NCBI GenBank assembly: GCA_965237835.1
Contig: OZ250160.1
Location: forward strand, 2,530,146-2,594,145
Origin: Candidatus Poribacteria bacterium
GTDB taxonomy: Bacteria > Poribacteria > WGA-4E > WGA-3G
DNA: 64,000 nucleotides
Direction of reading: 5' to 3'
Shown here: positions 13,257 to 63,973 of the stretch, piece by piece
Layout: each line of letters begins with the position of its first letter
Numbering within the stretch: position 1 is the first letter of the stretch
Made by a program: the position numbers and the translations under genes
Notes under the pieces: generated by a model
The model's input: the letters and a program-made list of their open reading frames with translations, nothing else
What the model was told of the DNA's origin: nothing
The model's database searches: none

Positions 13257-13292
13257 AAATTATGTCACATTTATCAGTATGAATAACAATAG

Positions 13293-13330: not shown

Positions 13331-13338
13331 AGAAAAAG

Positions 13339-16051: not shown

Positions 16052-16065
16052 AATGAAACTGTCCA

Positions 16066-16836: not shown

Positions 16837-17223
16837 AAATTATGTCACATTTATCAGTATGAATAACAATAGACAGGTAACTTTGCGGTTACCTGTCTTC
16901 TCTTTTTATCAGAAAAAGTTGACATGTAACATGTATACGCGTATATTATCTGAACCAGGATTTTCAGGATTATCAGATTTTCAGGATTATAGATACTTCC
17001 TCAAATGAACAAGGACTTTGTTGAGAAATATAGATTTGAAGATAATACTAGCAGAAGATAGCCATCCATCTAAAAGCATACTAATCCTGATAATCCCATA
17101 ATCCTGTCCATCCTGGTTCAGACAATCCGAGATTTAGACAGAACCTTTGACATTTAATCCAACACATAGTAGAATAAACACAACGTTAATTGGTATTAGA
17201 ACAGCACATAGGAGAACACACCC

Positions 17224-18333: not shown

Positions 18334-18351
18334 TACGACCGCGCTGCGGTA

Positions 18352-18579
18352 TTAGGTATTTAGAACAGCACAAAAGGAGAACACACCCATGAAAAATAGC
18401 ACGAAACCAACTTTGTTGACATTTCCAACGCAAACCCTCCTCTTTGAGCCATTCCCAGATCGTTGAATCAGAAGATGAATACCCGTTTTCTCTGTAAACG
18501 CAGTTTGCAATCGTCCCAGTGTCCATACCTCAAATGGATAACCGAGACTACGCGGTTTTTGCAACGCTAAATCTATCAT
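18352..18579 (-). pseudogene. Remnant of an IS630-family transposase N-terminal HTH region
   Basis: [24 protein letters not shown]...RSGNGSKRR resembles the winged-HTH region of IS630/Tc1 transposases. Only ~75 aa remain. Confidence 0.35.
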
Positions 18580-19640: not shown

Positions 19641-19808
19641 ATGAAGACAGTTAAAAATTTTTATAGGGAACGGTATTTAGACAATCAACCTCTCAAAGAG
19701 ATTAGTGAAAAATTGGGTATTTCTCTGACTAATGTTGAAGTATGCGTGAAACGTGTGATAAAGCAGTGGAAGAAATCCACAAGGCAAACGCCACGAAACG
19801 GAGGATAA
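19641..19808 (+). pseudogene. In-frame internal-deletion remnant of the ECF sigma gene (55-aa ORF retaining only the region-4 HTH)
   Basis: The first 7 codons (MKTVKNF) are fused to YRERYLDNQPLKEISEKLGISLTNVEVCVKRV. The upstream 140 bp is identical to 10800-10940. Confidence 0.5.
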
Positions 19809-19809
19809 T

Positions 19810-20568
19810 ATGCTTCGCGACATTTGGACAAATAAATGGTTTATCGGTGGCTTCGGTTTTCTGATTGTTTTCTCGGTGCTGTGTTACTTCTGGTACCAAC
19901 ACGATATAGCGTCATTCCAACAACAGTTATCGGCTACCGGTGATATTGTCTTTCAAGGGGATCTATCTCAAAAGGCACAAAAAACCGTTCAAACAGACGT
20001 GCCGCTGATAGAATCTCTTGAATCTGTAGAAAATAGGTCTGAATCTGTTAGGGATACGTCGGTTCCCACAGAGAAGACAACAGAAAAAACCGACACGTTT
20101 GAGATAAACACAAAATTAACTGCGGATGCTCCTACTTCTCCCTTTGGATTTGGTGCATATCCTGAAGTTCCCGCTGATTATCCGTTTCAGGAACGACTTT
20201 GGGATAACGCCACGCCAGAGCATGAGTTGTTAGTCCGAGTCGAAGTTAAGTTATGGAAACAAGGCACACAAACTAAAGGCTCTATGTTTGATACTAATAA
20301 TGGTCTCATTTATCCGACTATTCCTGGTGTCCTTTACGTGAAATGGCGTTACATTGAAGAAGGAGACCCAGATTTAGTAGGGCGAAGGTATGCCGGTAGA
20401 GTAAGCGGTGACGGAGATACTGCTAAAAAGTGGCAATCCTTATACCTTACTGACCGTATGTTTGAACGCACAGACGTAACGCATGACACTGAGGCATCAG
20501 GTATAAAGATTTATGAGTACCCAGACGGGGGTATAGACCCCTACAAATTCCTCGATTTAACGAGGTAA
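19810..20568 (+). CDS. Cassette protein X3 (TM anchor plus conserved X C-domain), near-identical to X1
   Basis: 252 aa with a handful of substitutions relative to 11714-12472. Confidence 0.7.
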   Translation: MLRDIWTNKWFIGGFGFLIVFSVLCYFWYQHDIASFQQQLSATGDIVFQGDLSQKAQKTVQTDVPLIESLESVENRSESVRDTSVPTEKTTEKTDTFEINTKLTADAPTSPFGFGAYPEVPADYPFQERLWDNATPEHELLVRVEVKLWKQGTQTKGSMFDTNNGLIYPTIPGVLYVKWRYIEEGDPDLVGRRYAGRVSGDGDTAKKWQSLYLTDRMFERTDVTHDTEASGIKIYEYPDGGIDPYKFLDLTR

Positions 20569-20578
20569 GGAAAATAAA

Positions 20579-21358
20579 ATGAAATTGTATCGTGTTCTTT
20601 TACTTTTTTTCTTTTCATGCGCTATCCTCTTCGTTGGTGCAGTTAGTGATATTTCAGCAGATGCTCAAGTTAACGGTCCCTATACTGCTGAAGCATACGT
20701 TTATCGTGTTAACACAGCTAATGTCATATTGACCGCTAAAGCTAGTAGTACGCCGCGGGCAAAAAACGGTAAGTATAAATTAGTTGCAAATAAAGATTCA
20801 GATTTAAACAGACAGGTCGAAACTTGGGATCCACTTGAAGAACAAACCCACCTGGATACACATGGTGCTCCAATTGATGGTGAATTCTCCGAAGAGCTAA
20901 AAAGAAATTATCCTTCGACAGAATACGGATACCAGGCTAAATCACTTGTTGATGGACAATTGACAGATGGAGCTTTTCGTGCTGCTTTTGCTGAAGATAA
21001 AGTGGGCGAGATACCTATTCTTGAACCCACCCCCGTCCCTCAACCACAATTGGGCATATCCCCCGTAGATCCAGATGACACTCCTTATCCCGGCGAAGCA
21101 CATGAGTACAGACTTGTCACAGAGGCACCTTATTACTATGTGAATTGGTATGTGAAGGCACCTTGGGAGACAAGTGAACGCGGATCATATATAGGGAGTG
21201 ACTCAGGTGACGGCACGACAACTGAATCTACATTCAGTTACACGTTCCCGAGCGGTGCAATGCATACTGGAGATTTTCTGATAACAGCGGTCATTTACCG
21301 GTGGTCAGATATGTCTGAGTATGAGGAGACTTATACTGCGACTGTGTCATTAGATTAA
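20579..21358 (+). CDS. Cassette protein Y3 (secreted; divergent N-domain, conserved C-domain)
   Basis: Signal peptide. N-domain only distantly similar to Y1 and Y2 (DGPYTAEAY.YRV...ASST). C-terminal ~105 aa conserved. Confidence 0.7.
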   Translation: MKLYRVLLLFFFSCAILFVGAVSDISADAQVNGPYTAEAYVYRVNTANVILTAKASSTPRAKNGKYKLVANKDSDLNRQVETWDPLEEQTHLDTHGAPIDGEFSEELKRNYPSTEYGYQAKSLVDGQLTDGAFRAAFAEDKVGEIPILEPTPVPQPQLGISPVDPDDTPYPGEAHEYRLVTEAPYYYVNWYVKAPWETSERGSYIGSDSGDGTTTESTFSYTFPSGAMHTGDFLITAVIYRWSDMSEYEETYTATVSLD

Positions 21359-21768
21359 AATTACGTCGCATTTATCATTGTGAATAACAACAGACAGGTA
21401 TCCTTGAGGTTACCTGTCTTCTCTTTTTATCAGAAAAAGTTGACATGTAACATGTATACGCGTATATTATCTGAACCAGGATTCTCAAGATTACCAGATT
21501 TTCAGGATTATAGATACTTCCTCAAATGAACAAGGACTTTGTCGAGAAATATAGATTTGAAGATAATACTAACTAGCAGAAGATAGCCATCCATCTAAAA
21601 GCATACTAATCCTGTCCATCCTGGTTCAGACAATCCGAGATTCAGACAGAACCTTTGACATTTAATCCAACATATAGTAGAATAAACGCAACATTAAAAT
21701 GATTTATATTTAGCCCGCGTCTTTCTATCCAGATAGGTATTTAGCACAGCACACAGGAGAACACACCC

Positions 21769-22917
21769 ATGAGAAACAAATTGTTTTCAATTTTGACAGC
21801 ACTGTTTGTAGCACTCCCATTTATGACCTGCAGTCTTCCGCCAGGTTCACTGGAGGAACCGCTACATGATCCACAGCAGGAACCGCAGCAGAAACCGCAG
21901 CAAGAGCATTTACCCAATGGCGTGAAAGTGCCCCCCGGGAGAGTATGGGTTATGGATGTAAAATTTTCACCCGATGGCACATGTCTCGCGGTGGCGGGTG
22001 GCATCGGCATTTTGCTTTACGATACACAGACTTATGACAAACCGGACCTACTTAAAGGGCATACGGGTTATATATGGTGCATAGCGTTTCGTCCGGATGG
22101 AAAGGTGCTCGCAAGTGCAGGTCAGGACCGGACTGTCCGTTTGTGGGATGTGAACACGAGACAACAAATCAGAACATTTGGAATAAACTTGTATCCTACG
22201 TCAAACATAACATTTAGTCCGGATGGCAAGACACTCGCAAGCGCAACTGGAGGTAATAATACGAAGGATGTTATGAACGTCTATCTATGGGATGCAGACA
22301 CAGGTAAACGCCTACGCACACTCTCTGGGCATACGAATATAGTCAACGATGTGTCGTTTCGTCCGGATGGAAATATGCTCGCAAGTGCGTGTGACGACCA
22401 AACCGTCCGTCTGTGGGATGTGGAGACGGGACAACATATCAGAACACTATCTGGGCATACGAAGATGGTCGAGAGCGTTGCATTTAGTCCGGATGGAAAT
22501 ATGCTCGTAAGTGGAGGTGGGTATCATAATGCTGTCGCTCTGTGGAATGCGAACACGGGACAACAAATCAGAGCACTCACTATCAATGCACACTTGGAAC
22601 AACAAATCAATGTCCACATGGAAAAATATAGCAGACACATAGGCGCAAAAGGGGGGAGCAAGATTAGTGGAGAAGATGTGGCGTTCAGTCCGGATGGAAA
22701 CACTATCGCAAGTACCGGTCCTTCTTCCATCCATCTGTGGGATATGGGCTCGGGACAACACCACAGAATACTCCACAACGGAAAGTATCCTGATATAGCA
22801 ACAGATGTAGCGTTCAGTCCGGATGGAAACACTATCGCGTGTGTAGGTTGGTATGAAGCACATGTGTGGGATGTGGAGACGGGAAAACTCATCCGAATAC
22901 TCATGGGCAAACATTGA
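21769..22917 (+). CDS. WD40 repeat lipoprotein-like protein (WD40-3, divergent paralog)
   Basis: Same signal and leader as the other WD40 genes. WD40 units FSPDG....LWDV. Confidence 0.85.
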   Translation: MRNKLFSILTALFVALPFMTCSLPPGSLEEPLHDPQQEPQQKPQQEHLPNGVKVPPGRVWVMDVKFSPDGTCLAVAGGIGILLYDTQTYDKPDLLKGHTGYIWCIAFRPDGKVLASAGQDRTVRLWDVNTRQQIRTFGINLYPTSNITFSPDGKTLASATGGNNTKDVMNVYLWDADTGKRLRTLSGHTNIVNDVSFRPDGNMLASACDDQTVRLWDVETGQHIRTLSGHTKMVESVAFSPDGNMLVSGGGYHNAVALWNANTGQQIRALTINAHLEQQINVHMEKYSRHIGAKGGSKISGEDVAFSPDGNTIASTGPSSIHLWDMGSGQHHRILHNGKYPDIATDVAFSPDGNTIACVGWYEAHVWDVETGKLIRILMGKH

Positions 22918-22971
22918 TACTACCGTTCTGTGGTATTAGGTATTTAGAACAGCACACAGGAGAACACACCC

Positions 22972-24075
22972 ATGAGAAACAGATTGTTTTCAATTTTCAC
23001 AGCACTGTTTATAAAACTAACATTTCTGAGCTGCAGTCTCCCACCCGGTTCATTGGAGGATCCGCTGCATGATCCACAGCAAGCCCCGCAGCAAGAGCAT
23101 TTACCCGAAGGCGCGAAAGGGCGCATCAAGAAAGACAGGATCCATGATATAGCGTATTCACCAGATGGCACGAAGCTAGCGGTGGCAGGTGGTAGCGGTA
23201 TTTGGCTCTACGATGCACAGACAGGTCATGAACTTGTCCAATTCGCAGGACATACCTATACAGTCCACAACGTGGCATTTCGTCCAGACGGAAAGACTAT
23301 CGTAAGTGCCGCTATCGGTTACGATCAGACCATTCGTATATGGGATGTGAACACGGGAAGAAACCTACGAACATTCAGGTATGTGGCCTTTGACGTCGCG
23401 TTTAGCCCGGATGGAAAGATGATCGTAAGTGGCGGTCATGACAAAAACCTCTATTTACTGGATGCGGACACAGGTAAACTCGTACGCACCCTCTCTGGGC
23501 ATACGGATTTTGTCTGGAGCGTGGCGTTTAGTCCGGATGGAAAAACTATCGCAAGTCGCAGTCAGGACAAGACCATTCGTCTGTGGGATGCGAACACAGG
23601 AAAACTCCTGCGAACACTCACAATGGATACGCATCTGCCCAAGTATTTTCTCAATATCGTAATTTTTAGTCCTGATGGAAAAGTGATCGCAAGTGTTGGT
23701 AATGACCGGACCATTTGTCTGTGGGATGCTAACACGGGAAAACGCCTACGAACAATCGCAAGAAATACGACTCCTTTTCATAAAAACTTGGCATTTAGTC
23801 CGGATGGAAGCATGATCGCATGCAACAATTGGCTCGATATTGACCTATGGGATGTGAACAACGGAAAACTCCTACGAACACTCACAGGGTATAGGGAGAA
23901 TAACCCATCGCGTCGGGAGTGGAGGAGAGGACATATTGGACTTATAGGACCCCCCGGAATCTTTACGGTGGTGTTCAGTCCGGATGGAAAGACTATCGCA
24001 GGTGCCAGTGTGCATGGCGTCCATCTGTGGGATGTGAACACGGGGTACCTCCGAAAACTCATCAGTGGTTTTTGA
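22972..24075 (+). CDS. WD40 repeat lipoprotein-like protein (WD40-4)
   Basis: Closest to WD40-1 and WD40-2. The downstream 165 bp is identical to 14754-14917. Confidence 0.85.
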   Translation: MRNRLFSIFTALFIKLTFLSCSLPPGSLEDPLHDPQQAPQQEHLPEGAKGRIKKDRIHDIAYSPDGTKLAVAGGSGIWLYDAQTGHELVQFAGHTYTVHNVAFRPDGKTIVSAAIGYDQTIRIWDVNTGRNLRTFRYVAFDVAFSPDGKMIVSGGHDKNLYLLDADTGKLVRTLSGHTDFVWSVAFSPDGKTIASRSQDKTIRLWDANTGKLLRTLTMDTHLPKYFLNIVIFSPDGKVIASVGNDRTICLWDANTGKRLRTIARNTTPFHKNLAFSPDGSMIACNNWLDIDLWDVNNGKLLRTLTGYRENNPSRREWRRGHIGLIGPPGIFTVVFSPDGKTIAGASVHGVHLWDVNTGYLRKLISGF

Positions 24076-24257
24076 TACGACCGCGCTGCGGTCTGTTGTA
24101 AAATGCCAATTTTCTGTTAGCGGAATTGTCCCTTAAATCTATCTATAAGAGAAAACTCTCATAGAATAATAGCATCTGTTTGCAAGCATTCCTATCTGGT
24201 TTTGTGAATTAAATTCTAAACGTCCCTGTTAATTTCTACTTGGTAAGGAGAAAAATC

Positions 24258-25397
24258 ATGAAATTTGTCAACTTCTGTCTGTTTACTACTTTTGTTCTTA
24301 TAACAGTAATGCAAATCGGATGTTTGTCCGGTGGTGCGATGGGTACTGCGGAAAAATTAAGTGAGACGAAAGACTATCGCGGTGCATTAGAAGTCTATCA
24401 AAATGTTGTAGATACCAAACCCGGTACTGCTGACGCGCGCGCAGCACAACTCGCAATAGGTGAACTCTACATTGAGCATATACATCAACCCGAACAAGGG
24501 ATTGAAACTTATGAAGCGGTCATTGCTGAAGCACCCACAAGCGATGAAGCTGCAGAGGCACACTATCGTCTCGGGATGCACGCCTATCGCCAAAAAGACT
24601 ATGACGCAGCGCAAACCCAATTTGGTACTATTGTTAACCAATTTTCGCATCTGGAATTGAGTCACAACGCACAACTGATGTCGGCAAAAAGTTATGAGGA
24701 CGGGCAAAAATTTGAACAAGCTGTAGAAGTTTATGATAATTTTGCGAACCGCAACCCACAGAGTAAACGCGCTGCACAAGCCCTCGCCAATAAAGCGCGA
24801 ATACAACGCAAATTCCTTAAAGATGATGATGAAGCGATACGTACCCTGCAATCATTAGTCATAAAATACGGCAAAATTAAGAGCGCAGAATCATACGTTA
24901 AAGAAGCTAAAAAAGTATTAATTGAATTCAATGTCTCTCCTTTTGGATTTGGTGCATATCCTGAAGTTCCCGCCGATTATCCATTTCAGGAGCGACTTTG
25001 GGATAATGCCACGCCAGAGCATGAGTTGTTAGTCCGAGTCGAAGTTAAGTTATGGAATCAAGGAACACGAACTAAAGGTGCAGCGTTTAGTAGTAATGGT
25101 CTCGTTTATCCCACAATTTCTGGTGTCCTTTACGTAGAATGGCGTTACATTGAAGAAGGTGACCCAGATTTAGTAGGGCAACGGTATGCGGGACGTGTAA
25201 TGGGTGACGGAGATACTGCTAAAAAGTGGCGATCTTTATACCTTACTGACCGTATGTTTGAGCGCACAGACGTAACGCATGACACTGAGGTATCAGGTAT
25301 AAAGATTTATGAGTATCCAGATGGAGGAATAGACCCCTACAAATTCCTCGATTTACCGAGGTTTGATGTTGAATTGAGAGAAGGAGGCAAAAACTAA
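24258..25397 (+). CDS. Cassette protein X4: intact TPR lipoprotein fused to the conserved X C-domain
   Basis: RBS AAGGAG 7 nt upstream of the ATG at 24258. Lipobox IGC. TPR-like repeats. C-domain SPFGFGAYPEVPADYPFQER... Confidence 0.75.
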   Translation: MKFVNFCLFTTFVLITVMQIGCLSGGAMGTAEKLSETKDYRGALEVYQNVVDTKPGTADARAAQLAIGELYIEHIHQPEQGIETYEAVIAEAPTSDEAAEAHYRLGMHAYRQKDYDAAQTQFGTIVNQFSHLELSHNAQLMSAKSYEDGQKFEQAVEVYDNFANRNPQSKRAAQALANKARIQRKFLKDDDEAIRTLQSLVIKYGKIKSAESYVKEAKKVLIEFNVSPFGFGAYPEVPADYPFQERLWDNATPEHELLVRVEVKLWNQGTRTKGAAFSSNGLVYPTISGVLYVEWRYIEEGDPDLVGQRYAGRVMGDGDTAKKWRSLYLTDRMFERTDVTHDTEVSGIKIYEYPDGGIDPYKFLDLPRFDVELREGGKN

Positions 25398-43168: not shown

Positions 43169-45256
43169 ATGGAAAAGCAAATTTTGAACCAAAAAATCGA
43201 CATGTTCATTTTCTGGATAGTATTACTCATAATTGGTATACAAAATATAGGTTATGCGGAACTGGAGTTCACAGAAGGTGATACAACCACTCGCGAAATA
43301 GAAGAAAATACGCCTGCCAGCACAAACATTGGAGCATCATTGAGATATACTGCAGAGGGAGTCAATAGCTGCTCCCGTGTGATACTTCGTGGTCCGGATG
43401 CAAGGGCATTCGACGTTGACCGTGTCTTTCGCGGCATACAGTTGAAAACCAAATCCGCATTGGACTATGAGACCAAGGACTCCTATGAAGTGAAGGTCAT
43501 CATCTCAGCTTCAGTTGGAGGCAGCAGGGACGCAATCACCGTGACTATTACGGTGACGGATGTCAACGAAGCACCGATGTTTGCTGAGGCGAGTGATGGC
43601 GGGAACCGTATTTACCGCTCAATCCCAGAAAATACAGCGGTAGGCACAAACATCGGAGATCCAGTGTCGGCGATCGATCCTGATGGCTCCGAAGTCGCCT
43701 TGACATACAGCCTGAGTGGCATGAACGCGGATATGTTTGGGATTGACAGTACTACGGGACAGTTGAAAACCTCCGCCCCACTCAACTATGAGGCTTTCGC
43801 CAACGAGCCGCGTGCCTATCTCGTAAGTGTCCGTGTCTTTGATGGTACGATGGATGCTGAAATGGAGGTCAGCATTGCTGTTGAACCTGTAAACGAATTC
43901 GCACCCATGTTTATAGAAGGAGACGCGGCGACCCGCGAGATACACGAAAAAGAAGAGGGAGGCGCGAATATTGGGGTGCCTGTCTCAGCGACAGATATGG
44001 ACATCGGTGAGACTTTAGAATACAGCCTCACCGATGCCGATCTGGATGTATTTGAGATTGATAGTGGTACGGGTCAGTTGAGAACTAAGGCTGCACTGGA
44101 TTATCAAACCAAGCCAGTCCATACGGTGAAAGTAGTGGTCTCGGATGGTACTCGGATCGACAGCATTTTGGTTACTATTAATGTTTTGACTGATGTTGTG
44201 GAAGTGCCAGATCCAGTCTTGGCGAGGATGATTCGTAGAAAACTCGGCTTGCGGGCAGGTGCCGATATCACAAAGAAGGCGATGTTAGAATTAACGACAC
44301 TGAATGCCAACAGAGGCAGGCCAGAGATAAATATTATCACTGGATTGGAACACGCGACGAACCTGACGACGTTACTTCTCGATTACAATAGCATCAACGA
44401 CCTCACGCCACTTACCGGTCTGACGAACCTGATAACGCTACGTATTGATGGTAATCGTGTCGATAGAATTATGCCGCTTGCGGGTTTGACGAATCTGACG
44501 ACGCTACATCTCGCGGACAATCGGATAGGTTATCTTGAACCGCTTGTGGGTCTGACGAATCTCACAGATTTACGCCTCGAATTCAATCGAATAGACGATA
44601 TCACATCACTTGATGGTTTAACCAACCTAAAGACGTTACATCTGGCGCAGAATACCCGACTTACGGATGTCAGTCCCCTCGCAGGGTTAGTTAGTCTTGA
44701 AACTTTAACACTCGCAGGATGTCCGATTGAGGATTTTACGCCGCTTGCTGATCTCACGGCAGATATTGATGTTCTAGGAGGATCTGCTCCGGCGGCGAAC
44801 CGAAACGGAATCAATGTTCTTCTGGATCCGGTAGTGCTTAAGAAATTAGATAGAAAAGCACTTCAGGGACTGCTGCAAAGGTTGCATACTGTAAGCAACG
44901 GGTCTCTGAAGTACCGTGAAATGATTGCTTTGATTGGAAAAATTTTGAAATCAAAACGTCCAAACAAAACAACGCTGCTTGCTAACTATCCGAACCCGTT
45001 CAACCCGGAGACGTGGATACCGTATCATCTCGCACACGGCAGTGATGTGCGGATCGATATTTTTGATACGCACGGCACCGTCATCCGGCATTTAGAGTTG
45101 GGACATCAATCGGCAGGCTATTATACCAATAGGAACGATGCAGCATACTGGGATGGTCTCAATGATTCCGGTGAACATGTTACGACTGGGATATATTTCT
45201 ATCAGCTGCAAGCAGACAATGTGTCCCCAATGCGCAAAATGGTTATCCTCAAATAG
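43169..45256 (+). CDS. Secreted cadherin-repeat and leucine-rich-repeat protein with a T9SS-type (Por) C-terminal sorting domain
   Basis: Cadherin motifs VTDVNEAPMF and VEPVNEFAPMF. LRR run LTNLTTLHLADNRIGYLEPLVGLTNLTDLRLEFNRI. C-terminus NYPNPFNPETWIPYHL...IDIFDTHG...WDGLNDSGEHVTTGIYFYQL matches the TIGR04183-like consensus. Confidence 0.75.
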   Translation: MEKQILNQKIDMFIFWIVLLIIGIQNIGYAELEFTEGDTTTREIEENTPASTNIGASLRYTAEGVNSCSRVILRGPDARAFDVDRVFRGIQLKTKSALDYETKDSYEVKVIISASVGGSRDAITVTITVTDVNEAPMFAEASDGGNRIYRSIPENTAVGTNIGDPVSAIDPDGSEVALTYSLSGMNADMFGIDSTTGQLKTSAPLNYEAFANEPRAYLVSVRVFDGTMDAEMEVSIAVEPVNEFAPMFIEGDAATREIHEKEEGGANIGVPVSATDMDIGETLEYSLTDADLDVFEIDSGTGQLRTKAALDYQTKPVHTVKVVVSDGTRIDSILVTINVLTDVVEVPDPVLARMIRRKLGLRAGADITKKAMLELTTLNANRGRPEINIITGLEHATNLTTLLLDYNSINDLTPLTGLTNLITLRIDGNRVDRIMPLAGLTNLTTLHLADNRIGYLEPLVGLTNLTDLRLEFNRIDDITSLDGLTNLKTLHLAQNTRLTDVSPLAGLVSLETLTLAGCPIEDFTPLADLTADIDVLGGSAPAANRNGINVLLDPVVLKKLDRKALQGLLQRLHTVSNGSLKYREMIALIGKILKSKRPNKTTLLANYPNPFNPETWIPYHLAHGSDVRIDIFDTHGTVIRHLELGHQSAGYYTNRNDAAYWDGLNDSGEHVTTGIYFYQLQADNVSPMRKMVILK

Positions 45257-51450: not shown

Positions 51451-52269
51451 AATGTGCTCCTTAAGTATATTGTTAGTCTGGACGGAGTATATTAAGTTTG
51501 AGCAATTATATACCTAAAAGCAGATAGCGGTGTGGTGCGTCATTACCACGCGCAAATCATTCTTTGCCTTGTAGGAAATATAATACAGCACATTGTTTTT
51601 TTACATAAACGTTTGATTCGGAATTTTGGTTGACTTTAAAATTTAATTCCTTACGACACACATGTTTTCTATTTCAAATCACAAATGTAGAGGTTGAGAA
51701 TTCAACACGCAAAAATTGCATGTAACATACTATTTTTGCGTCATAATCTATAATTTTCGCGGTTCATCATACAACTTTTGCGTACCGGCAATGAGATGGA
51801 ACATTAAAGAACTTACACTTTTTAATGAAAATAATTTAATTTTAAAATATTATAGCGGTAATTTTCGATTTGATGAATCCAATGTTTACCTATGTTTAAG
51901 ACGTATAGAAGTTAGAAAACATAATTTCAACCCAATGGTTCTGACACAAAAAATGGTTCATAATAAAGTAATGGCACGAAACTTGCTTTATTATTTAGGT
52001 TTTATACCAAATTAACGCAATTTGTAGCGCGAGGTCCCCGTGCCTCGCAATGCTAACCGCTATTAGAAAACTTCTAATCAAGTTAATTTGGTATTAGTAA
52101 GTATTGTAGTCTATGTGACATTCAAAATGAACTTATTATATTAAATTTTACATAAGATATTAGGCATACACCGTGTGCCTTAACGGTGTAAGTACGCCTG
52201 TCCCTCTCCCCTTTGGGCGTGCTTACAAAAATCGCGATTTGGATAGGCGCGCTAACCAAATCGCGATTT

Positions 52270-55199: not shown

Positions 55200-55320
55200 T
55201 TGTTCTCTGTCGCGCGAGGTCCCCGTGCCTCGATCTTTGTCTGAAACGCCACACCAACCATGTCGGGGCACGGGGTCCCCGACCTACAATAAAAACAATG
55301 GTAGGTGCTGGTCCCCGTGA
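55200..55320. repeat. REP elements (RAYT-type GTAG plus GC palindromes)
   Basis: gtcgcgcgaggtccccgtgcctcga, gtcggggcacggggtccccgacctac, gtaggtgctggtccccgtga. Confidence 0.5.
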
Positions 55321-55456: not shown

Positions 55457-58400
55457 TTGCCGTTGCATCAATATCAACAGTCACAAGGGGACACCATGCC
55501 ATCTCTCAACATCAAACCCACACACAAACCGATCAAGACATACTACATGGAACTGGAAAAATATGAACAACTCGGCGCAGAAAACGAGGGCAGCGTCAGA
55601 GCAGCATTCCAAAACCTACTACAGCACTACTGCGGACAATCCAACCTCACGCTCCTTTGCGAAAAAACGATCCACACCACAGATAACAGGCGGATAATCC
55701 CTGATGGCGAAATCGTTGACGTATACAAATTACCGCACGGCTATTGGGAAGCAAAAGATACACAGGACGACCTACATAGCGAAGCAGACAAGAAGTTCAC
55801 CGTAGGCTACCCCTCCAAAAACATCGTGTTTCAATCACCGACACACGCGCTCCTCTATCAGAACGGGCAGCTACGACTTGACACAGACATCACCGACCCG
55901 AAAAACCTTGTCCAAGTGCTGCAAACCTTCTTAGCATATCAAGAGGAGAACATCACAGCGTGGCATCAGGCTGTCGCAGAATTCAGAGAGATTGTCCCAC
56001 AACTCGGTGAAAAACTGGCGACGTTGATCCAAACCGAACGTCAGAACAATCCACATTTTCAGGAGGCGTTCTCCAATTTCCATCAGCAGTGCCAAACCTC
56101 TATTAACCCGAATCTATCTATCGCTGCAGTTGAGGAGATGCTCATCCAGCACCTGCTAACCGAACGGATATTCGCTACCATTTTTGATAACCGCGACTTC
56201 ACCCGCAGAAATATCATCGCACGCGAGATTGAAAATGTTATTGATGTGCTTACTGAACGCACCCTGAACCGATCCGAATTTCTCCGTCACTTGAACCCGT
56301 TTTACGTAGCAATAGAGAAAACTGCCCGCACGATTACCGATTTCTCACAGAAACAGGGATTTCTGAATGCGGTTTATGAGCAGTTTTTTCAAGGCTTCTC
56401 TGTCAAGGTCGCAGATACGCACGGTATCGTCTACACACCGCAACCGATTGTGGATTTCATGGTGAAAAGCGTTGAACACATTGGACAGACAATGTTCGGT
56501 CGTTCCCTGTCCGATAGCGGTGTGCATATCATTGACCCATTTGTCGGCACTGGCAACTTCATTGTCCGCATCATGCAGGAACTTGACCCGATCGCACTGG
56601 AACGGAAATACACCGCCGACCCGCCAGAACTGCAGTGCAATGAGGTGATGCTCCTACCATACTACATCGCCAGTCTGAACATAGAACATCAGTTTTTCAC
56701 GGCGACGAACCGGTACGCCGCATTTGAAGGTATCTGCCTTGTGGATACTTTTGAAATGGCAGAGGATCGGCAGATGTCGCTATTTGTGCCTGCAAACACG
56801 GCACGCGTTGAGAAACAGAAGCAGACACCGATGTTTGTGGTTATCGGCAATCCGCCCTACAATATGGGACAGGTGAATGAGAACGACAACAACAAAAATC
56901 GCAAATATGAGACGATGGACAAGCGGATTGCGGATACTTATGTGAAAGATTCTAAAGCGACGCTCAGAAATAAACTCTACGATCCTTATGTCAAGGCGAT
57001 TCGGTGGGGCTTGGACAGGATTGGTGAGGAAGGGGTTGTCGCCTTTGTTACGAACAATAGTTTTCTTGATGGCATTGCGTTTGATGGCATGCGGAAACAC
57101 CTTGCAGAGGATTGCGATGCTATCTACATTCTGGATTTAGGCGGAAATGCGCGGAAGGGATTGAAGGTCTCCGATGCCAATGTATTCGGTATTCGGGTTG
57201 GGGTGAGCATCAATCTATTTGTCAAGAAAAAGGATGATTCATCTGAGACACCGCACCTCTTTTACTATCGCACCGATGACTTGTGGAACAAAAAACAGAA
57301 GTTTGATTTTCTCAATGAACGTCAACACATAGGCGGTATTGAATGGCGACCTATTCTACCGGATGCACGGCAAACATGGCTCACCGAAGGTCTGCACGCC
57401 GAGTTTGACACTTTTATTTCAATGGGAGACAAGGAAACGAAAAGATCTACAAGTGAGGTCGATTCAATTTTTCGTCTTTACTCTTTGGGAGTTGCTACAA
57501 ACAGAGATGTTTTGGTTTATTCTTTTGATCTTGGCTTGTTACAAGAACGCGTTGACACATTTATTGAAATATACAATACAACCGCTGATAGGAAGAGGAG
57601 GCACAGTCCGAAGGATCCCGTTGAAAGTTTCATTGATACGAATGATCCTTGCATCAAATGGACTCGTCAAGTTAAAGCATCGCTGAAAAGACTTGAGCCA
57701 AGCAGCTACGAAGAGACACACTTTCGTTCTGCTTTGTATCGTCCGTTCTGTCAGAAACATCTCTACTTTGATAATTTTTGGAATGAGGAACGTTATCAAC
57801 AACATCGAATTTTTCCTACATCAGAGGTAGAAATTGAAAATCAGGTAATTTGTGTTGGAGGGTACGGTAGAAAAGAATTTGCTGTTTTGATGAGCAATTC
57901 TATTCCTGACTTGAATCTATATTCTGATCCGCACCAATGCTTCCCGTTCTACACCTACGACGAAGATGGCACAAATCGCCGCGAAAACATCACCGATTGG
58001 GCATTGGCGCAGTTCCGCATGCACTACAAAGACGACTCCATCAGCAAGTGGGACATCTTCCACTATAACTACGGCATCCTGCATCATCCGGACTATCGCA
58101 ATAAGTATCAGGCGAACCTCAAGCGCGACCTGCCGCATATCCCGTTTGCCCAAGATTTTTGGGGATTTGCCAACGCTGGCGCGCGCTTAGCAGACATACA
58201 CGTCAACTACGAATCCCAACCCGAATATGACAAACTCAAGTTCGTGCAGAACCCAAACGTCCCGCTCAATTGGCGCGTTGAGAAGATGAAACTTGCCAAA
58301 GATAAAACCTCGCTTGTCTACAATGATTTTTTGACGCTTGATGGTATTCCAGCAAAGACGTTTGACTATCGGCTTGGCACCCGTTCTGCGTTGGAATGGA

Positions 58401-58561
58401 TTATCAATCAGTATTGTGTCAAAACGGACAAGCGGAGTGGCATCGTCAACGACCCGAATCGTGCCGATGATCCGCAATATATTGTGCGGTTGATTGGGCA
58501 GGTGATTTCGGTGAGCTTGGAGACGGTGGATATTGTTGAGAATTTGCCTGCGTTACAGTAG
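55457..58561 (+). CDS. Type IIG/IIL restriction-modification enzyme (MmeI-like: N-terminal PD-(D/E)xK nuclease fused to gamma-class N6-adenine methyltransferase and a TRD)
   Basis: N-terminal IPDGEIVD...WEAKD (the D...ExK of the MmeI family). MTase motif I DPFVGTGNF, motif IV VIGNPPYN. 1034 aa. Confidence 0.7.
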   Translation: MPLHQYQQSQGDTMPSLNIKPTHKPIKTYYMELEKYEQLGAENEGSVRAAFQNLLQHYCGQSNLTLLCEKTIHTTDNRRIIPDGEIVDVYKLPHGYWEAKDTQDDLHSEADKKFTVGYPSKNIVFQSPTHALLYQNGQLRLDTDITDPKNLVQVLQTFLAYQEENITAWHQAVAEFREIVPQLGEKLATLIQTERQNNPHFQEAFSNFHQQCQTSINPNLSIAAVEEMLIQHLLTERIFATIFDNRDFTRRNIIAREIENVIDVLTERTLNRSEFLRHLNPFYVAIEKTARTITDFSQKQGFLNAVYEQFFQGFSVKVADTHGIVYTPQPIVDFMVKSVEHIGQTMFGRSLSDSGVHIIDPFVGTGNFIVRIMQELDPIALERKYTADPPELQCNEVMLLPYYIASLNIEHQFFTATNRYAAFEGICLVDTFEMAEDRQMSLFVPANTARVEKQKQTPMFVVIGNPPYNMGQVNENDNNKNRKYETMDKRIADTYVKDSKATLRNKLYDPYVKAIRWGLDRIGEEGVVAFVTNNSFLDGIAFDGMRKHLAEDCDAIYILDLGGNARKGLKVSDANVFGIRVGVSINLFVKKKDDSSETPHLFYYRTDDLWNKKQKFDFLNERQHIGGIEWRPILPDARQTWLTEGLHAEFDTFISMGDKETKRSTSEVDSIFRLYSLGVATNRDVLVYSFDLGLLQERVDTFIEIYNTTADRKRRHSPKDPVESFIDTNDPCIKWTRQVKASLKRLEPSSYEETHFRSALYRPFCQKHLYFDNFWNEERYQQHRIFPTSEVEIENQVICVGGYGRKEFAVLMSNSIPDLNLYSDPHQCFPFYTYDEDGTNRRENITDWALAQFRMHYKDDSISKWDIFHYNYGILHHPDYRNKYQANLKRDLPHIPFAQDFWGFANAGARLADIHVNYESQPEYDKLKFVQNPNVPLNWRVEKMKLAKDKTSLVYNDFLTLDGIPAKTFDYRLGTRSALEWIINQYCVKTDKRSGIVNDPNRADDPQYIVRLIGQVISVSLETVDIVENLPALQ

Positions 58562-58594
58562 TAGGCACACTCCGTGTGCCATAAACCATATTCC

Positions 58595-58623
58595 TTGATA
58601 TTTTCTTCGGAATGTGCTATTAT
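58595..58623 (+). promoter_or_regulatory. Sigma-70-type promoter for the SIR2-NTPase operon
   Basis: TTGATA, 17 nt, TATTAT. Confidence 0.45.
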
Positions 58624-58694
58624 TTAAACAATCAATTGCCACGAATCTCCAGAGGATTTTCGCTGAGGACTTTTGTCATCATATCACTTTATAA

Positions 58695-59750
58695 ATGAAT
58701 AATCAAAAAATAATTTTACCCGAAGTTTTTACACCACAAGAACGAAACGAAAACACTGAGCGAAAGCGTGAATTGGTTGAGTTTGTTGCTTCTGGAGAAG
58801 CCGTACTTATAGTTGGCGCAGGAAGTAGTGTGCGTGTCTGCTACGTGACTTGGGATGGTCTTATGGTGAATTTGGAGAATTTAGCCAATGAATGTGGTGA
58901 AGGTCTTACTCAAAGATTTAAGAATGACCCATTAGCATACGCAGAAGACATCAAATTGCACATTAAAAATGAAACAAGCAATCTAAACAGATATCACGCT
59001 TTGCTTCAGAACCTATTTTGTCCAAAAGATCCACCGTGTAATGATTTTCATAAAAAACTTGTTGCACTACCCTTTAGAGGAATCTTGACAACCAATTACG
59101 ATACTGTGCTTGAAGCAGCATTAGGTGAGATAGAACCGAGATTTGCCTATGATAACTCATTCATCATTAACGAAAATTCCGCTGGACGAGTTCATGAATT
59201 TTTGATGGCAATGAATAATGATAAAAGAATGACTCGGCGTATTGCACACTTGCACGGAAAATTTGATCCAGTGGATAGTATAATTTTGAGTATTGAAGAC
59301 TACAAAAATGCTTATGGTTTGAATCTCACTGACAGAGACAATCGACAAGCAGATGAATCTAAACTTCGTTTCAGACTACTTTGGTCGGTTTTAGCAACCC
59401 GTAGGGTCGTATTTATCGGTTTCAGCATGAATGATCCCTATTTCAACAAGATGTTAGAAACTGTCAGTGCTGACTTGTGGAGATGGAATAAATCCATTCA
59501 CTTCGCAATTATGAGTATTGCCTCTGGTAGTGCCGAGAATTCAAAAGTTAAAGCTGAAACGCTTAAGAGTGAATATGGCGTTGGCACTGTGTTTTACGAA
59601 GATTCTGACGACACGCATCAAGGTTTGGATCGTATACTTGATGAAATTGATGAAGCGTGCAAAGTTAAGAATCAACCGACAACTGATGAAGTAGATTGGT
59701 CAGAACAAATAAATCGACGAATGGAAGGGGGAATCGGGGATGAAGATTAA
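58695..59750 (+). CDS. SIR2-like (SIR2_2/DSR/ThsA-type) domain protein, putative NAD+-depleting defense effector
   Basis: Defense-SIR2 motifs LIVGAGSS (GAGxS), TTNYD, HLHG, and a late VVFIGFSMNDPYF block. Confidence 0.7.
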   Translation: MNNQKIILPEVFTPQERNENTERKRELVEFVASGEAVLIVGAGSSVRVCYVTWDGLMVNLENLANECGEGLTQRFKNDPLAYAEDIKLHIKNETSNLNRYHALLQNLFCPKDPPCNDFHKKLVALPFRGILTTNYDTVLEAALGEIEPRFAYDNSFIINENSAGRVHEFLMAMNNDKRMTRRIAHLHGKFDPVDSIILSIEDYKNAYGLNLTDRDNRQADESKLRFRLLWSVLATRRVVFIGFSMNDPYFNKMLETVSADLWRWNKSIHFAIMSIASGSAENSKVKAETLKSEYGVGTVFYEDSDDTHQGLDRILDEIDEACKVKNQPTTDEVDWSEQINRRMEGGIGDED

Positions 59751-62700
59751 TCGCAAGAAACTGTTGAACGACTTGCAGGACTTTGCATCACGAGGGGATG
59801 GAGTCATTATCGGTAGTCCGGGGATCGGAAAAACATACGTGCTGAAAGAACTTCGTCAAAGTCTAAAGTCTGCCGGAATACCACATCTCCTTTTACGGAT
59901 CGACCAACTTGGAGATGGCACGGACAAAACTTTACGAGAAGAGTTATCTTACAAAGGCGATCTAATTGAAAAATTGAAATCTATACCTGTTTCAGGCAAG
60001 AACGCAATTTTACTGTTTGATGCCTTTGATGCTGCACGGGATGAACAAACACGCAAACGCTTTTTAATCCTGATTCGACGTACAATCCGAGAACTCGTGA
60101 AGTGGAACGTAGTCGTTACAGTGAGAACCTATGACGCAAAGAAATCACAAGAACTCTTAGACATGTTTGGTAGTCCTGATGAATCGGTCCCACTCAATTA
60201 CCAGACCAAAGAAACCTTATGTCGACATTTCATAATACCACCTCTTGTTGAAGACGAAATCTTACACGTATTGGATCAGATTGGGTGTCCAAAAGACGTC
60301 TACTATGGAGGTTCGCAAGAGTTTAAGCATATTTTATCAATACCGTTCAACCTTTTGCTATTAGAAAAGATTATTAAATACTCACCAAATGAAGATATTA
60401 AATCCATTAGTCAAATTCGTTCAGAAGTTCAGTTGTTTGATCGGTTTTGGCAACAACGAGTTGATAATGAAACAAGTAAACGTGTTCTGCGAATAATCTC
60501 AAGTCAAATGGTTAAGGAACGTTCGTTGACCGTGAAAGTGGATGACATTCATGACGAAGTGGACCTTGACAACCCAGTGAGGAAATCCGCTTGGGATAAG
60601 CTCCAGAGTGATGAAATTTTGGCAATGGTTTCTTCAACAGGCCAAAGAATTGCATTCTCTCACAACATTCTCTTTGACTATGCAGTAAGCGTTTTACAGA
60701 TAGATGACAAACCACGACATTTTGAGAGATTTATTACCGAAGATCCCTCGCGCCCACTTTTTCTCAGACCAAGTCTTACCTATTTTTTTACACGCCTTTG
60801 GTATTATGAAGACTCAAAATATTTCTGGCGTGCATTCTGGCACATTTTATCAAGTAATCAATCTATCCATTTGCGTCTTGTCGCGCGCTTGATTCCGACA
60901 AGCGTTATTGCAAATGAAGCACGAAATATTGAACAACTGAATCAACTTATACAAAGACTTCAGAATAGTGAACCTTATGCAGACGAAGCAACAACAAGAC
61001 TTTTTCAGGCACTACAGTCCCTACAAATTAAACGAGAAAATCCCTGGATTGATTTCTGTGATCAAGCATCAGAATACTTGCACACCGACTTTGCTTGGGA
61101 TTTGGCAAACCTCACATCAGATATTCTTGAGGACACAAAAGATACAAATGTCGAAAATGCTTGTGGACGTGTAGGACGACGGTTACTTGAATGGGTTTGG
61201 CAAGAGAGAGAAACGAATGAAAGTGATTGGTATAACCGCTTTGGGGGACGTTGGGCAGTACCGCTTGTTGCAAAAACATATCATACAAATGTTGAAGAAT
61301 CTCGCGCACTTCTTGAAAAAGTTCTCCAATTAACACAAGAAGATAATTTCCCAATAGGATTTCTGACATGGTTGACTGACAATGTTGACAATATTTGTAT
61401 GCATGACCCAGAATTTGCAATCTTAATATATCGTACTGTTTTTTCACACCAATTTACCAGTGAAGGAGAGACACAACGCGGTACCCCTATTTTACCTATA
61501 ATTACCTATCGGAGCCAAGATTTTGGTATGTGTCAATATCGTCTGGTAAAGCATTTCCCTAAATTTCTACAAAAAAAACCTATATATGCAACACAAGCAG
61601 CAATCCAAAGTTTGAACTGTTTTATTGCTAAAGAACATGTTTTCCAGTTTTCCAGAAAAGATATGACAATTGATAAATTAATAGAACCGTTCGATTTTCA
61701 TGGGAAGACTGCATATTTTGTGAAAGACGATAGTTATATCTGGGATGCACAAATATCTTCTGATGAACCAATTGAAATGGCGAATACGCTGTTTGACTTT
61801 ATGACAAAATTGGCAAAGTCTGAAGAACAATATAACCTTCTCGATTCAATTCTTGATGTATTTGTAGATCAAGTGTATGTCGCATTTTTCTGGAAACGCC
61901 TATTGAAAATAGCGTCTCAGTTTCCAAAAGTTTTCGCACCGCGTTTGTTTGAGTTATGCATAGCAAAACCGATACTAATACATCTTGAAGTTTCTTATGA
62001 ACTCGGTCTATTTATAGAAAATGCTGCCTATGAATTTTCATCTGAACAACTACATCAGATTGAAGAAAGCATATTAGCACTCCCCAATGAATTGAAGAAC
62101 CAGGAAAATCACAACTATCTTAAAATGCATAGAGACAGTCTCCTTGCACAAATTCCTATGGAATTACTTTCTACAGATGAAGCTAAGTCAATAAGAGAAA
62201 AAATGGAACGTGAAAACAATGTTCCAGAAAATCGACCATTAGCGAGTTTTCATACTGGATGGGAATCTGTAACTGAAGAGAAACTGTTAAAAGAAAAAGG
62301 TATTGATCCTAATAAGCCTGAAAATCAAGTGTTACTTAGCTTATCCAAACCTCTTGTACAATTCAGTTCTGAATGGAGGAATAGTTCCCTGTCTAATGAA
62401 GCTGCAAAATTGGTTTTTCCTCAACTACAAGAAGCCTATGCAGCTAAAAGTAATACACAAGCGAAAAAAGAGGTAATAAACTCACTCTTCCATAAAATAG
62501 CTGAATGTGCGGCAATTCTTGGTAGAATCGCTGATAAGCTTGACAATGAAGCGTTTGTATTTTGCCGTAAAGTGCTACTTGAAGCTGCAAATCATGAAGA
62601 ACCAATACCAGATCCTGAAAACGATGAAAAATTCGATTTTCCAGGTTATTCATCACAACCACGACATTATGCTGCTGAAGGACTACTAAGAATAGTGTTC

Positions 62701-63801
62701 TATAAACCCGACTTGGAGATATTATCTGTAATTGAAAAGTTAGCTGATGATCCAGTTCCATCTGTTAGAATGTTGGTAGCTATGTATTTATCAAAAGTTC
62801 ATGTCAAAGAACCTGATAGATTCTGGCATATCATTAATAATAGAGCAGACCAGGAAGGAAATCTCATCGTTCAAGAATGTCTTTATTCAGCATTAAGGTA
62901 TGTAATAAGACCAACAAAAGAGAATGATGAAAAAACAGCAAGCGTTATGGCTAAAATTCTTGAGAAAACTCCTTTACCACAACAAAAAATGGGTACAATT
63001 GACCCGTTTAGTTTTCTTATAGTTGGCTTAGCAATAGTACGACAAAATCAATGGGCGTTAACCACAATTAATGAAGAATTCTTGAAAGATCCTATCAGAT
63101 TTGCCAATCTCCTCACCCGTTTTGTAACACAGGTTATAAAAGGCTATATAGATCCAAAACATACCCAAGAAAAAGATTTCGAAAGTAATTTAGTACGCGC
63201 AATTACCTTACTCAAAAGTATAGTCACTGTGACTATTTCTGCGATTAATGAATTAGGTTCTACTTTAAAGGAACAGAGAACAGAAAAAGTTGAGGAAAAA
63301 TTGCGAAACACTTACTCAGTCATTGACCAGATCATTACAAGTCTTTACTTTTCTTTTTCATATATAAAAAATAGTGATACCGAATCTACTGAAAAAAATG
63401 AAAATAATAATGCACTCTCTCTAATATTTAATGAAGTCTATCCATTAATGCAACAGATAGTAGATTTCGCACAAGATAAAGAAAACGGACTAATGTTTGC
63501 CCCGACAGCACATTATTTCATACAACTATTAACATGTTTTCTCAAATGTAATCCAAGAATAGTTATAAGTTTAGCCGAAGGTGTCGCGAGTTCAAGTGAA
63601 AGATTCGGTTATACGTTTGATTCAATTGCAGTTAAAGACATAGTTGATTTAGTCGAAATAGTCCTTGCAGACTATCGACATGTAGTGCGGGAAAACGAGG
63701 AAAGCTTGGAACATCTACTGAATTTATTAGATCTGTTCGCTAAAACAGGTCAGTCTGATGCACTTAATCTTGTTTGGAGACTTGATGAGGTATTTCGGTA
63801 G
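59740..63801 (+). CDS. Large (1353 aa) P-loop NTPase with extended alpha-helical C-terminal region (STAND-like candidate sensor), translationally coupled to the SIR2 gene
   Basis: Walker A GSPGIGKT at residues 26-33, Walker B-like AILLFDAFDAARD, then VVVTVRTYD. About 1150 aa of predicted helical repeats. The start overlaps the SIR2 stop by 11 nt. Confidence 0.6.
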   Translation: MKINRKKLLNDLQDFASRGDGVIIGSPGIGKTYVLKELRQSLKSAGIPHLLLRIDQLGDGTDKTLREELSYKGDLIEKLKSIPVSGKNAILLFDAFDAARDEQTRKRFLILIRRTIRELVKWNVVVTVRTYDAKKSQELLDMFGSPDESVPLNYQTKETLCRHFIIPPLVEDEILHVLDQIGCPKDVYYGGSQEFKHILSIPFNLLLLEKIIKYSPNEDIKSISQIRSEVQLFDRFWQQRVDNETSKRVLRIISSQMVKERSLTVKVDDIHDEVDLDNPVRKSAWDKLQSDEILAMVSSTGQRIAFSHNILFDYAVSVLQIDDKPRHFERFITEDPSRPLFLRPSLTYFFTRLWYYEDSKYFWRAFWHILSSNQSIHLRLVARLIPTSVIANEARNIEQLNQLIQRLQNSEPYADEATTRLFQALQSLQIKRENPWIDFCDQASEYLHTDFAWDLANLTSDILEDTKDTNVENACGRVGRRLLEWVWQERETNESDWYNRFGGRWAVPLVAKTYHTNVEESRALLEKVLQLTQEDNFPIGFLTWLTDNVDNICMHDPEFAILIYRTVFSHQFTSEGETQRGTPILPIITYRSQDFGMCQYRLVKHFPKFLQKKPIYATQAAIQSLNCFIAKEHVFQFSRKDMTIDKLIEPFDFHGKTAYFVKDDSYIWDAQISSDEPIEMANTLFDFMTKLAKSEEQYNLLDSILDVFVDQVYVAFFWKRLLKIASQFPKVFAPRLFELCIAKPILIHLEVSYELGLFIENAAYEFSSEQLHQIEESILALPNELKNQENHNYLKMHRDSLLAQIPMELLSTDEAKSIREKMERENNVPENRPLASFHTGWESVTEEKLLKEKGIDPNKPENQVLLSLSKPLVQFSSEWRNSSLSNEAAKLVFPQLQEAYAAKSNTQAKKEVINSLFHKIAECAAILGRIADKLDNEAFVFCRKVLLEAANHEEPIPDPENDEKFDFPGYSSQPRHYAAEGLLRIVFYKPDLEILSVIEKLADDPVPSVRMLVAMYLSKVHVKEPDRFWHIINNRADQEGNLIVQECLYSALRYVIRPTKENDEKTASVMAKILEKTPLPQQKMGTIDPFSFLIVGLAIVRQNQWALTTINEEFLKDPIRFANLLTRFVTQVIKGYIDPKHTQEKDFESNLVRAITLLKSIVTVTISAINELGSTLKEQRTEKVEEKLRNTYSVIDQIITSLYFSFSYIKNSDTESTEKNENNNALSLIFNEVYPLMQQIVDFAQDKENGLMFAPTAHYFIQLLTCFLKCNPRIVISLAEGVASSSERFGYTFDSIAVKDIVDLVEIVLADYRHVVRENEESLEHLLNLLDLFAKTGQSDALNLVWRLDEVFR

Positions 63802-63838
63802 ATTTCTCATAAATATCTGCATTCTGAGGATCAATCAA

Positions 63839-63973
63839 ATGACTGCAGCAGTTATCATCACAGGTTCAATTCTTGGTGTAATAGGCATCGGTTTTTCTAT
63901 TTGGTCCATAATAAACACCAGAAAACGGTATTATGAGGAATATATGAGGAGAAAACGCCGTGCAGACGATTAA
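63839..63973 (+). CDS. Small single-TM protein (possible third component of the SIR2-NTPase operon)
   Basis: MTAAVIITGSILGVIGIGFSIWSIINTRKRYYEEYMRRKRRADD: one hydrophobic helix plus a basic tail. Overlaps the end of the NTPase gene. Confidence 0.3.
   Translation: MTAAVIITGSILGVIGIGFSIWSIINTRKRYYEEYMRRKRRADD

Follow-up and report, generated by a model that had tools for sequence, protein, structure and literature searches.

STAND/NLR-like receptors that carry fused effectors (Avs1-21, bNACHT) now hold a central place in prokaryotic immunity, and in several of the described systems closest to the locus considered here a large protein is combined with a SIR2 domain. In Avs5 (AVAST type 5, e.g. 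EfAvs5), SIR2 is fused N-terminally to the receptor in one polypeptide. DSR2 joins SIR2 to an alpha-solenoid that binds the phage tail tube protein (PMC11850899, PMC11263360), and SIR2-HerA (Nezha) is a two-gene system of SIR2 and an ATPase (PMC11472057). A further relative, PDC-M54, is a computational candidate in PADLOC-DB v2, formed from a fused ~1660-aa A protein with its own N-domain, followed by a B protein.

The locus lies in a 64,000-nucleotide stretch of Candidatus Poribacteria DNA (contig OZ250160.1 of assembly GCA_965237835.1, positions 2,530,146 to 2,594,145), hereafter the window; in our comparisons the same locus is L001, on a metagenome-assembled contig of 5.93 Mb. It encodes a SIR2 protein and, directly downstream, a STAND-type NTPase that is "bare", having its Walker A motif almost at the N-terminus and no N-terminal effector domain. 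SIR2 and the separately encoded NTPase are a conserved two-gene unit with defence hallmarks. A bare STAND protein with SIR2 in trans is a variant within known SIR2-STAND logic rather than a new category, because that logic has been described already and the NTPase family is a listed candidate.

The pairing extends well beyond the window, whose relatives come nearly all from Poribacteria metagenome-assembled genomes. Among loci from reference genomes and close relatives, SIR2 is encoded directly 5' of the NTPase in 23 of 26; the same holds for all four of the distant loci examined (28-42% identity), among them that of the archaeon Methanosarcina barkeri CM1 and a frameshifted copy in L032, and for 27 of 30 metagenome loci retrieved independently (21 of 24 after duplicate removal), down to 26% identity. 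Altogether, about 50 independent loci carry the pair, in Poribacteria, Latescibacterota, diverse metagenomes and M. barkeri, with NTPase identity again reaching 26%; a first-pass annotation of this DNA had proposed that the effector is a separate polypeptide, as is seen here. The pairwise identities of the two proteins rise and fall together (Spearman 0.82 overall, 0.48 in the close set), neither value being reached in any of 2000 permutations. The two open reading frames (ORFs) are in different frames and share 11 nt, as had been described, with GGAAGGGGG ahead of the NTPase ATG, and in nearly all bare-form loci the junction is an overlap or a gap of at most 7 nt; this arrangement suggests that the two genes are likely to be translationally coupled. 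A split pseudogene of a fused SIR2-STAND protein, for example a frameshifted Avs5, was rejected as an explanation, given that the two-ORF junction is kept in about 50 loci down to 26% identity. No close fused SIR2-STAND homologue occurs among the best 150 representatives of the NTPase family.

The SIR2 protein contains the VGAGSS, TTNYD and HLHG motifs, the defence-SIR2 set noted at first reading, and matches Pfam SIR2_2 (PF13289, E=1e-19). PADLOC ThsA1 also matches (E=4.5e-19), over the SIR2 region only (HMM positions 11-245 of 478). A SIR2 profile searched against the PDB retrieved ThsA as the best match (5e-27), followed by KomC, DSR2 and human FAM118B, which are all immune NADases; the SIR2 of Avs5 was not retrieved at E<=0.01. 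NTPase-paired SIR2s at 29-74% identity all have N134, D136, H187 and G188, and nearly all have G41, G43 and S45; in the stretch T132-N134-Y135-D136 conservation is complete or almost so. With this domain, and with the catalytic Asn and His intact, the protein appears to belong with the immune NADases (SIR2_2/"SIRim"), and is predicted to have NADase activity. At its C-terminus (residues ~331-351, window 59685-59750), the tail W-x4-N-x2-M-E...DE[ND] is common to the SIR2s of bare NTPases and has no counterpart in those paired with NTPases bearing a fused SMEK_N nuclease (L005, L009); it may be a docking element.

The STAND/NACHT motif set consists of a Walker A GxxGxGK[ST], a Walker B hhhhDxxD, a sensor-1 Arg and a winged-helix His motif. 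The NTPase carries Walker A GSPGIGKT (K31) and Walker B LLFDAFDA (D94, D97), together with VTVR129 and FSH308NILFDYA; the Walker B corresponds to the DxxD form of NACHT proteins, R129 to their sensor-1 Arg and the last motif to their winged-helix FxHxxxQEF. Among 110 divergent representatives, conservation of K31, D94/D97, R129 and F-S-H308-N-I-L-F-D-Y-A is at least 90% in each case. For residues 1-560 a moderate-quality AlphaFold model (pLDDT 70) suggests a P-loop core, a helical bundle and a winged helix, in that order, and the best fold matches of this module are NLRP3, ZAR1, EfAvs5 and Avs4. Residues 521-1353 are modelled as an alpha-solenoid (pLDDT 90, pTM 0.75). Of the solved structures, the Avs4 sensor in complex with a phage portal matches it best (E=4e-7, TM 0.36), and SF3B1 and karyopherins come next; the TM-score being low, this likeness is one of solenoid class and carries no inference about the target. 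Avs4, a portal-sensing STAND protein, carries a fused N-terminal effector domain. A sequence profile of the NTPase retrieved only generic P-loop proteins from the PDB, e.g. ClpC, at E of about 0.01. By its motifs and modelled fold, the NTPase appears to be NACHT/STAND-like (NLR/Avs-like), in agreement with the Walker motifs and NTPase-plus-sensor architecture read from the sequence in the first-pass annotation.

Conservation is uneven along the solenoid. Across the 110 divergent representatives, residues ~1040-1240 are the least conserved, and the last ~70 residues (~1285-1353, window 63590-63801; ...GYxxDSxA...LVWRLDEVFR) are among the most conserved, down to ~21% identity. So much conservation would not be expected at an end that binds the target, and points to a role in regulation or in binding a partner.

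An exhaustive search of 1.84 billion cluster representatives (clusters at 50% identity) found 1,808 relatives of the NTPase, 846 of them at E<=1e-30. Bare proteins of ~1,330 aa that start at Walker A form the majority (about 110 among the best 150 representatives); the dominant form of this large family, which reaches into the Archaea, keeps its putative effector as a separate protein. A minority have N-terminal modules: a SMEK nuclease, a PNP_UDP_1 "PN-superfamily effector", a trypsin-like protease, and two further modules without a family. Trypsin-like protease modules occur also in Avs1b and LmuA. SMEK has been named as the nuclease domain of partners of short pAgo (PMC10810196). The NTPase is not covered by any NCBIfam model (June 2026), and its plasmid copies are annotated only as "ATP-binding protein".

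PADLOC does hold this family, as PDC-M54A. The window NTPase matches two of its hidden Markov models (PDLC04700, E=4.2e-183; PDLC04702, E=5e-164), over profile positions ~302-1657 only, with NTPase residue 2 aligned to position 302. The founder type, P0387, is a 1661-aa protein (1763 bits over profile 1-1657) with a ~300-aa N-domain of no known family, and an overlapping ~500-aa gene 3' of it matches PDC-M54B (E=4e-165); the same A+B arrangement is found on a Rhizobium plasmid. At the window locus, neither the gene downstream of the NTPase (gene 3) nor the three larger genes that follow (read from L001) have a PADLOC match, so that PDC-M54B is absent there, and tblastn with two PDC-M54B proteins found nothing in the 30 metagenome loci. 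The two systems have in common the NTPase-plus-solenoid protein family and a partner encoded in trans, but the window has an upstream SIR2 where PDC-M54 has the fused N-domain and the following B. Lacking both the A-type N-domain and the B gene, the window locus is not PDC-M54 as defined, and canonical PDC-M54 identity was rejected. The description of the locus as an undescribed system therefore holds in part: its NTPase family is already catalogued as PDC-M54A, whereas the SIR2-paired form is unnamed in the papers and NCBIfam models found. As most members are SIR2-paired and without B, the PADLOC rule PDC-M54 = A+B probably misses most of the family.

PDC-M54B itself (L030 6785-8308; L036 8912-10357) has no Pfam family. 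It has a D...E-x-K-like motif (LILEAKSW/LVVETKRP) and a Cys-rich C-terminus, from which it is probably a PD-(D/E)xK-type nuclease effector in trans.

Set against the named systems, the pair is distinct in each case. Neither protein matches any PADLOC Avs model at E<=0.1, and Avs5 is a single fused polypeptide where two genes are found here. The SIR2 domain is nearest to the ThsA of Thoeris in both PADLOC and the PDB, with the same catalytic N and H; however, the 351-aa window protein has no SLOG or Macro ligand-binding domain, the match covering the SIR2 part only, and its partner in the operon is a STAND NTPase rather than ThsB/TIR. The one ThsB_TIR gene seen is in L005, on the other strand and at a distance of 2.5 kb. 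In DSR2, as is proposed here, a SIR2 NADase is controlled by a large sensor part, but within a single protein (~1000-1200 aa for DSR1 and DSR2) that has no NTPase; the NCBIfam scores are 30.5 bits for Dsr2 and 15.4 for Dsr1, where the cut-offs are 1400. SIR2-HerA likewise gives a SIR2 NADase a large ATPase partner, but HerA is a hexameric ATPase of RecA/FtsK type and not STAND; the window NTPase has no HerA match in PADLOC or Pfam, and its modelled fold appears STAND-like. The expectation that Thoeris, DSR1/2, SIR2-HerA, SPARSA and Avs5 would not match was correct, by Pfam, PADLOC and NCBIfam scans, fold and pairing. Erebus/Hypnos are Avs10 and unrelated. A 2026 census of STAND proteins describes 589 clades (PMC13581612), among which the NTPase family may be included.

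Signs of horizontal mobility and of dispensability, and a defence context, accompany the pair. Nearly every locus shows it to be richer in AT than the flanking DNA: the window has GC fractions of 0.370 for the NTPase, 0.386 for SIR2 and 0.434 overall, and in L027 the pair stands at 0.41-0.44 against flanks of 0.62. Relatives are present on 13 plasmids, 7 of them conjugative, and copies are disrupted by insertion sequence (IS) insertion or frameshift in L007, L025 and L032. Neighbours of the pair and its relatives include Type IIG restriction-modification (R-M) enzymes, an HmaA/DrmD-like SNF2 helicase, ThsB_TIR, HEPN_Apea, PDC-S15 (FRG-TPR), PIN, HipA and ABC-3C. A relative was found in only 1 of 2.9 million viral contigs, and a phage origin was rejected on this basis.

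A few loci depart from the usual arrangement. SIR2 is missing from L012 and L017, both with SMEK_N-fused NTPases, and is broken by an insertion in L007. In all three, a ~1140-aa SNF2 helicase with a NOV_C domain (two ORFs in L017) is encoded divergently, on the opposite strand, upstream of the NTPase; that of L012 matches PADLOC HmaA (E=1e-189). This helicase may be an alternative partner or belong to a neighbouring system.

The explanation we favour, with a probability of roughly 0.6 (0.62), is that the pair is a two-gene antiviral system of abortive-infection type, Avs5-like with its NADase effector in trans. Observed in its favour are the domain identities, intact catalytic motifs, strict and ancient pairing, co-divergence, effector swapping within the family and the signs of horizontal mobility; from Avs5 (PMC11897194), DSR2 (PMC11850899) and SIR2-HerA (PMC11472057), which serve as models for activity, trigger and trans-activation, we infer NADase activity, phage-protein sensing, activation in trans and an abortive outcome. 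In such a mechanism, the C-terminal alpha-solenoid of the NTPase would bind a phage-derived protein, lifting autoinhibition and allowing the NACHT-like module to bind ATP and oligomerise. SIR2, probably made in a fixed ratio through translational coupling, may be docked via its conserved C-terminal tail, and the NTPase oligomer would gather SIR2 protomers into an active NADase assembly. Hydrolysis and depletion of NAD+ would then arrest the infected cell before phage release, with the Type IIG enzyme serving as an often co-transferred first-line defence outside the core.

Several observations weigh against this explanation. The co-divergence of SIR2 and NTPase is confounded by host phylogeny, and the Pfam NACHT score of the NTPase is marginal (27.4 bits, threshold 26.7). 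NTPases with a fused SMEK_N nuclease keep a separate upstream SIR2 as well (L005, L008, L009, L020, L021), so that SIR2 may not simply be "the" effector. Among Poribacteria, the mean column identity of the NTPase is 72% over the whole protein, more than would be expected of a fast-evolving sensor. The literature and NCBIfam searches, which did not extend to the supplementary tables of the STAND census, found no paper on this family, and no paper or curated model naming a two-gene system of SIR2 and bare STAND. Finally, in about 10 Poribacteria genomes (the L014-L022 group: L010, L011, L013-L016, L019, L022, L029) the pair occupies a syntenic spot beside an M24 peptidase gene cluster. What surrounds this site varies (the IIG gene may be there or not, and there are IS elements and an insertion of a dockerin-domain gene), pointing to a defence hotspot specific to the lineage; in the window genome the pair is located elsewhere.

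The SMEK_N-fused members bear on an unlikely alternative, in which SIR2 is a regulator or signal generator rather than the killing effector, for example ADP-ribosylating the NTPase or a target, or giving rise to an ADP-ribose-derived signal. The output would come from the NTPase or its fused N-module and, in the bare form, would be something other than NAD+ depletion. Two "effectors" within one system would be accommodated in this way, and the absence of the C-terminal tail from the SIR2s of SMEK_N loci suggests a different coupling mode. On the other hand, dual effectors are not unusual in defence systems, SIR2 falls in the ThsA/DSR2/KomC NADase group with all catalytic residues kept, and the bare proteins that dominate the best 150 representatives have no other enzymatic domain to act as effector.

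The gene upstream of SIR2 raises the question of whether the unit is larger. That the operon lies immediately downstream of a Type IIG enzyme had been read from the sequence, and PADLOC (REase_MTase_IIG PDLC03621, E=2.7e-187, residues 26-1032 of 1034) and Pfam (ISP_coupler, N6_Mtase, Eco57I, Type_ISP_C) agree; with GNPPYN and PDG...EAK motifs visible in its translation, it is by sequence a full-length Type IIG R-M enzyme comprising a nuclease, a gamma-class N6A methyltransferase (NPPY) and a target-recognition domain. It is rather improbable that the unit in Poribacteria and Latescibacterota is a triad of IIG, SIR2 and STAND in which the pair guards or backs up the restriction enzyme, firing for example when a phage anti-restriction protein blocks IIG, as PrrC does with EcoprrI. 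In L040 and in 10 of 24 genome loci, the gene immediately 5' of SIR2 is indeed a homologue of IIG (60-80% identity); at least four unrelated flank contexts and two phyla are represented, and the IIG-SIR2 gap is 8-21 nt in L024 and L027, and tight in L028 as well if SIR2 uses its longest-ORF start. The whole triad of L027 is far AT-richer than its flanks, which implies joint transfer, and across 8 triads IIG and NTPase co-diverge (Spearman 0.83). However, all distant pairs and about 14 of the 24 close loci have no IIG, and in the window 133 nt, including a hairpin and a possible promoter, separate the two genes. An unrelated gene is inserted between them in L015 and L019, the GC fraction of IIG is 0.465 against 0.37-0.39 in the pair, and adjacent defence genes are often co-transferred without functional coupling. 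The enzyme is missing from most SMEK_N-form loci too; being absent from all distant pairs, it is not core, and we read it as a co-transferred, lineage-specific companion that is more than a chance neighbour within the lineage.

We consider very improbable a combination of these ideas, in which a distinct and ancient antiviral system of Bacteria and Archaea has an NLR-like receptor that activates a free NADase through the C-terminal docking tail and, in sponge symbionts, is wired to IIG as a guard or back-up firing upon restriction inhibition. No more probable is a cellular role outside immunity, for instance in NAD-linked control of stress or signalling, with the pair passed on vertically as a more or less core part of Poribacteria genomes: the very high conservation over all 1353 aa among Poribacteria, the syntenic M24-side position and the single viral match would fit it, but the distribution is patchy across phyla and into Archaea, the pair is below its flanks in GC with relatives on plasmids, nuclease, protease and PNP N-modules are swapped within the family, copies are broken by IS insertion or frameshift, the window pair is sited away from the syntenic group, the neighbours are defence genes, and the family is listed as a PADLOC defence candidate.

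If the pair is indeed an antiviral system, it would provide a natural setting in which to study the recruitment and activation of an effector in trans by an NLR-like oligomer, comparable to the way in which caspases or helper proteins are brought in by the NLRs of eukaryotes. The family displays effector exchange, with SIR2 in trans, PDC-M54B in trans, or a fused nuclease, protease or PNP module. With the pair, the immune repertoire of sponge symbionts, on which little work has been done, would gain a prominent defence module acquired by horizontal transfer.

The coordinates of the locus and of other features of the window are collected in the table.

Table. Features of the window, in window coordinates.
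Feature	Position	Strand	Remarks
Type IIG R-M enzyme gene	55457..58561	+	1034 aa; PADLOC and Pfam matches
IIG-SIR2 spacer	58562..58694	+	133 nt; hairpin GGCACACTCCGTGTGCC at 58564-58580; sigma-70-like site at 58595-58623
SIR2 effector gene (predicted)	58695..59750	+	351 aa; ThsA-like immune NADase type
SIR2 stop/NTPase start overlap	59740..59750	+	11 nt; GGAAGGGGG immediately 5' of NTPase ATG
NACHT-like STAND NTPase gene	59740..63801	+	1353 aa; residues ~1-320 predicted nucleotide-binding domain, helical domain and winged helix, then ~1000-aa alpha-solenoid
Small single-transmembrane peptide gene (gene 3)	63839..63973	+	44 aa; basic C-terminal tail; ribosome-binding site GAGGATCA upstream
REP-like hairpin copies	52023-52047, 55208-55232, 52163-52179, 58564-58580		copies bracket Type IIG gene
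Tandem paralogous cassettes	11714-25397		starts 11714/12483/13644; 15254/16066/17224; 19810/20579/21769+22972; 24240
Eukaryote-like surface protein gene	43169-45256		695 aa

The three co-oriented ORFs of the operon are borne out by the ORF listing. As regards expression, the first-pass annotation gave the operon its own sigma-70-like promoter. The site is present in the spacer (TTGATA-17-TATTAT, extended TG); however, such sites are not enriched in the surrounding 10 kb (21 found against 22.8 expected from shuffles), and its hexamers are kept in one related locus only, L011. Other loci, including one without an IIG gene, have a different conserved block 10-60 nt 5' of the SIR2 ATG, and a promoter belonging to the pair is plausible. 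An Rfam scan of the window gave no match.

Gene 3, initially put at 45-70 aa, is real and encodes a single-transmembrane peptide. Its most likely start, ATG 63839, is the one chosen by the gene callers, has a GAGGA ribosome-binding site (conserved as GAGGAT[CT]A) and fits the conserved coding region; homologous peptides in L010, L011 and L016 begin at the matching start with the same GAGGATTA motif. This ATG stands 37 nt after the NTPase stop, so that the ~40-nt overlap claimed earlier, which depended on the longest-ORF start at 63758, disappears. The gene is found downstream of the NTPase only in L001-L003, L010, L011, L016 and L039, of about 50 distinct loci (~5 loci, near-identical strains aside), and has no family match in Pfam, PADLOC or NCBIfam. 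As a third component it was rejected, given this distribution and the loss of the overlap, and the peptide is an accessory, occasional passenger.

Beyond the window end (L001 15379-16683) follow a 253-aa transmembrane protein of no known family, a 76-aa gene and, truncated to 99 aa, a PIN-like gene; the PIN of the related strain L003 is intact, at 143 aa. The latter two look like a decaying VapBC-type toxin-antitoxin module. All three were rejected as components, being conserved only in near-identical strains and without family matches.

The REP and MITE debris reported to surround the operon comes down to a small number of short hairpin repeats (52.0-52.6 kb, 55.21 kb and 58.56 kb). They form two families of REP-like intergenic hairpins, TGT[AC]GCGCGAGGTCCCCGTGCCTCG and GGCA[CT]AC[TA]CCGTGTGCC.

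Elsewhere in the window, three to four tandem cassettes each encode a ~252-265-aa protein, a ~257-aa protein and a ~369-382-aa WD40 beta-propeller; the copies are 45-97% identical to one another, and the two smaller proteins have no Pfam family. The 695-aa protein is a surface protein of eukaryote-like type, such as sponge symbionts typically have, and combines cadherin and leucine-rich repeats with a Por_Secre_tail domain (type IX secretion sorting).

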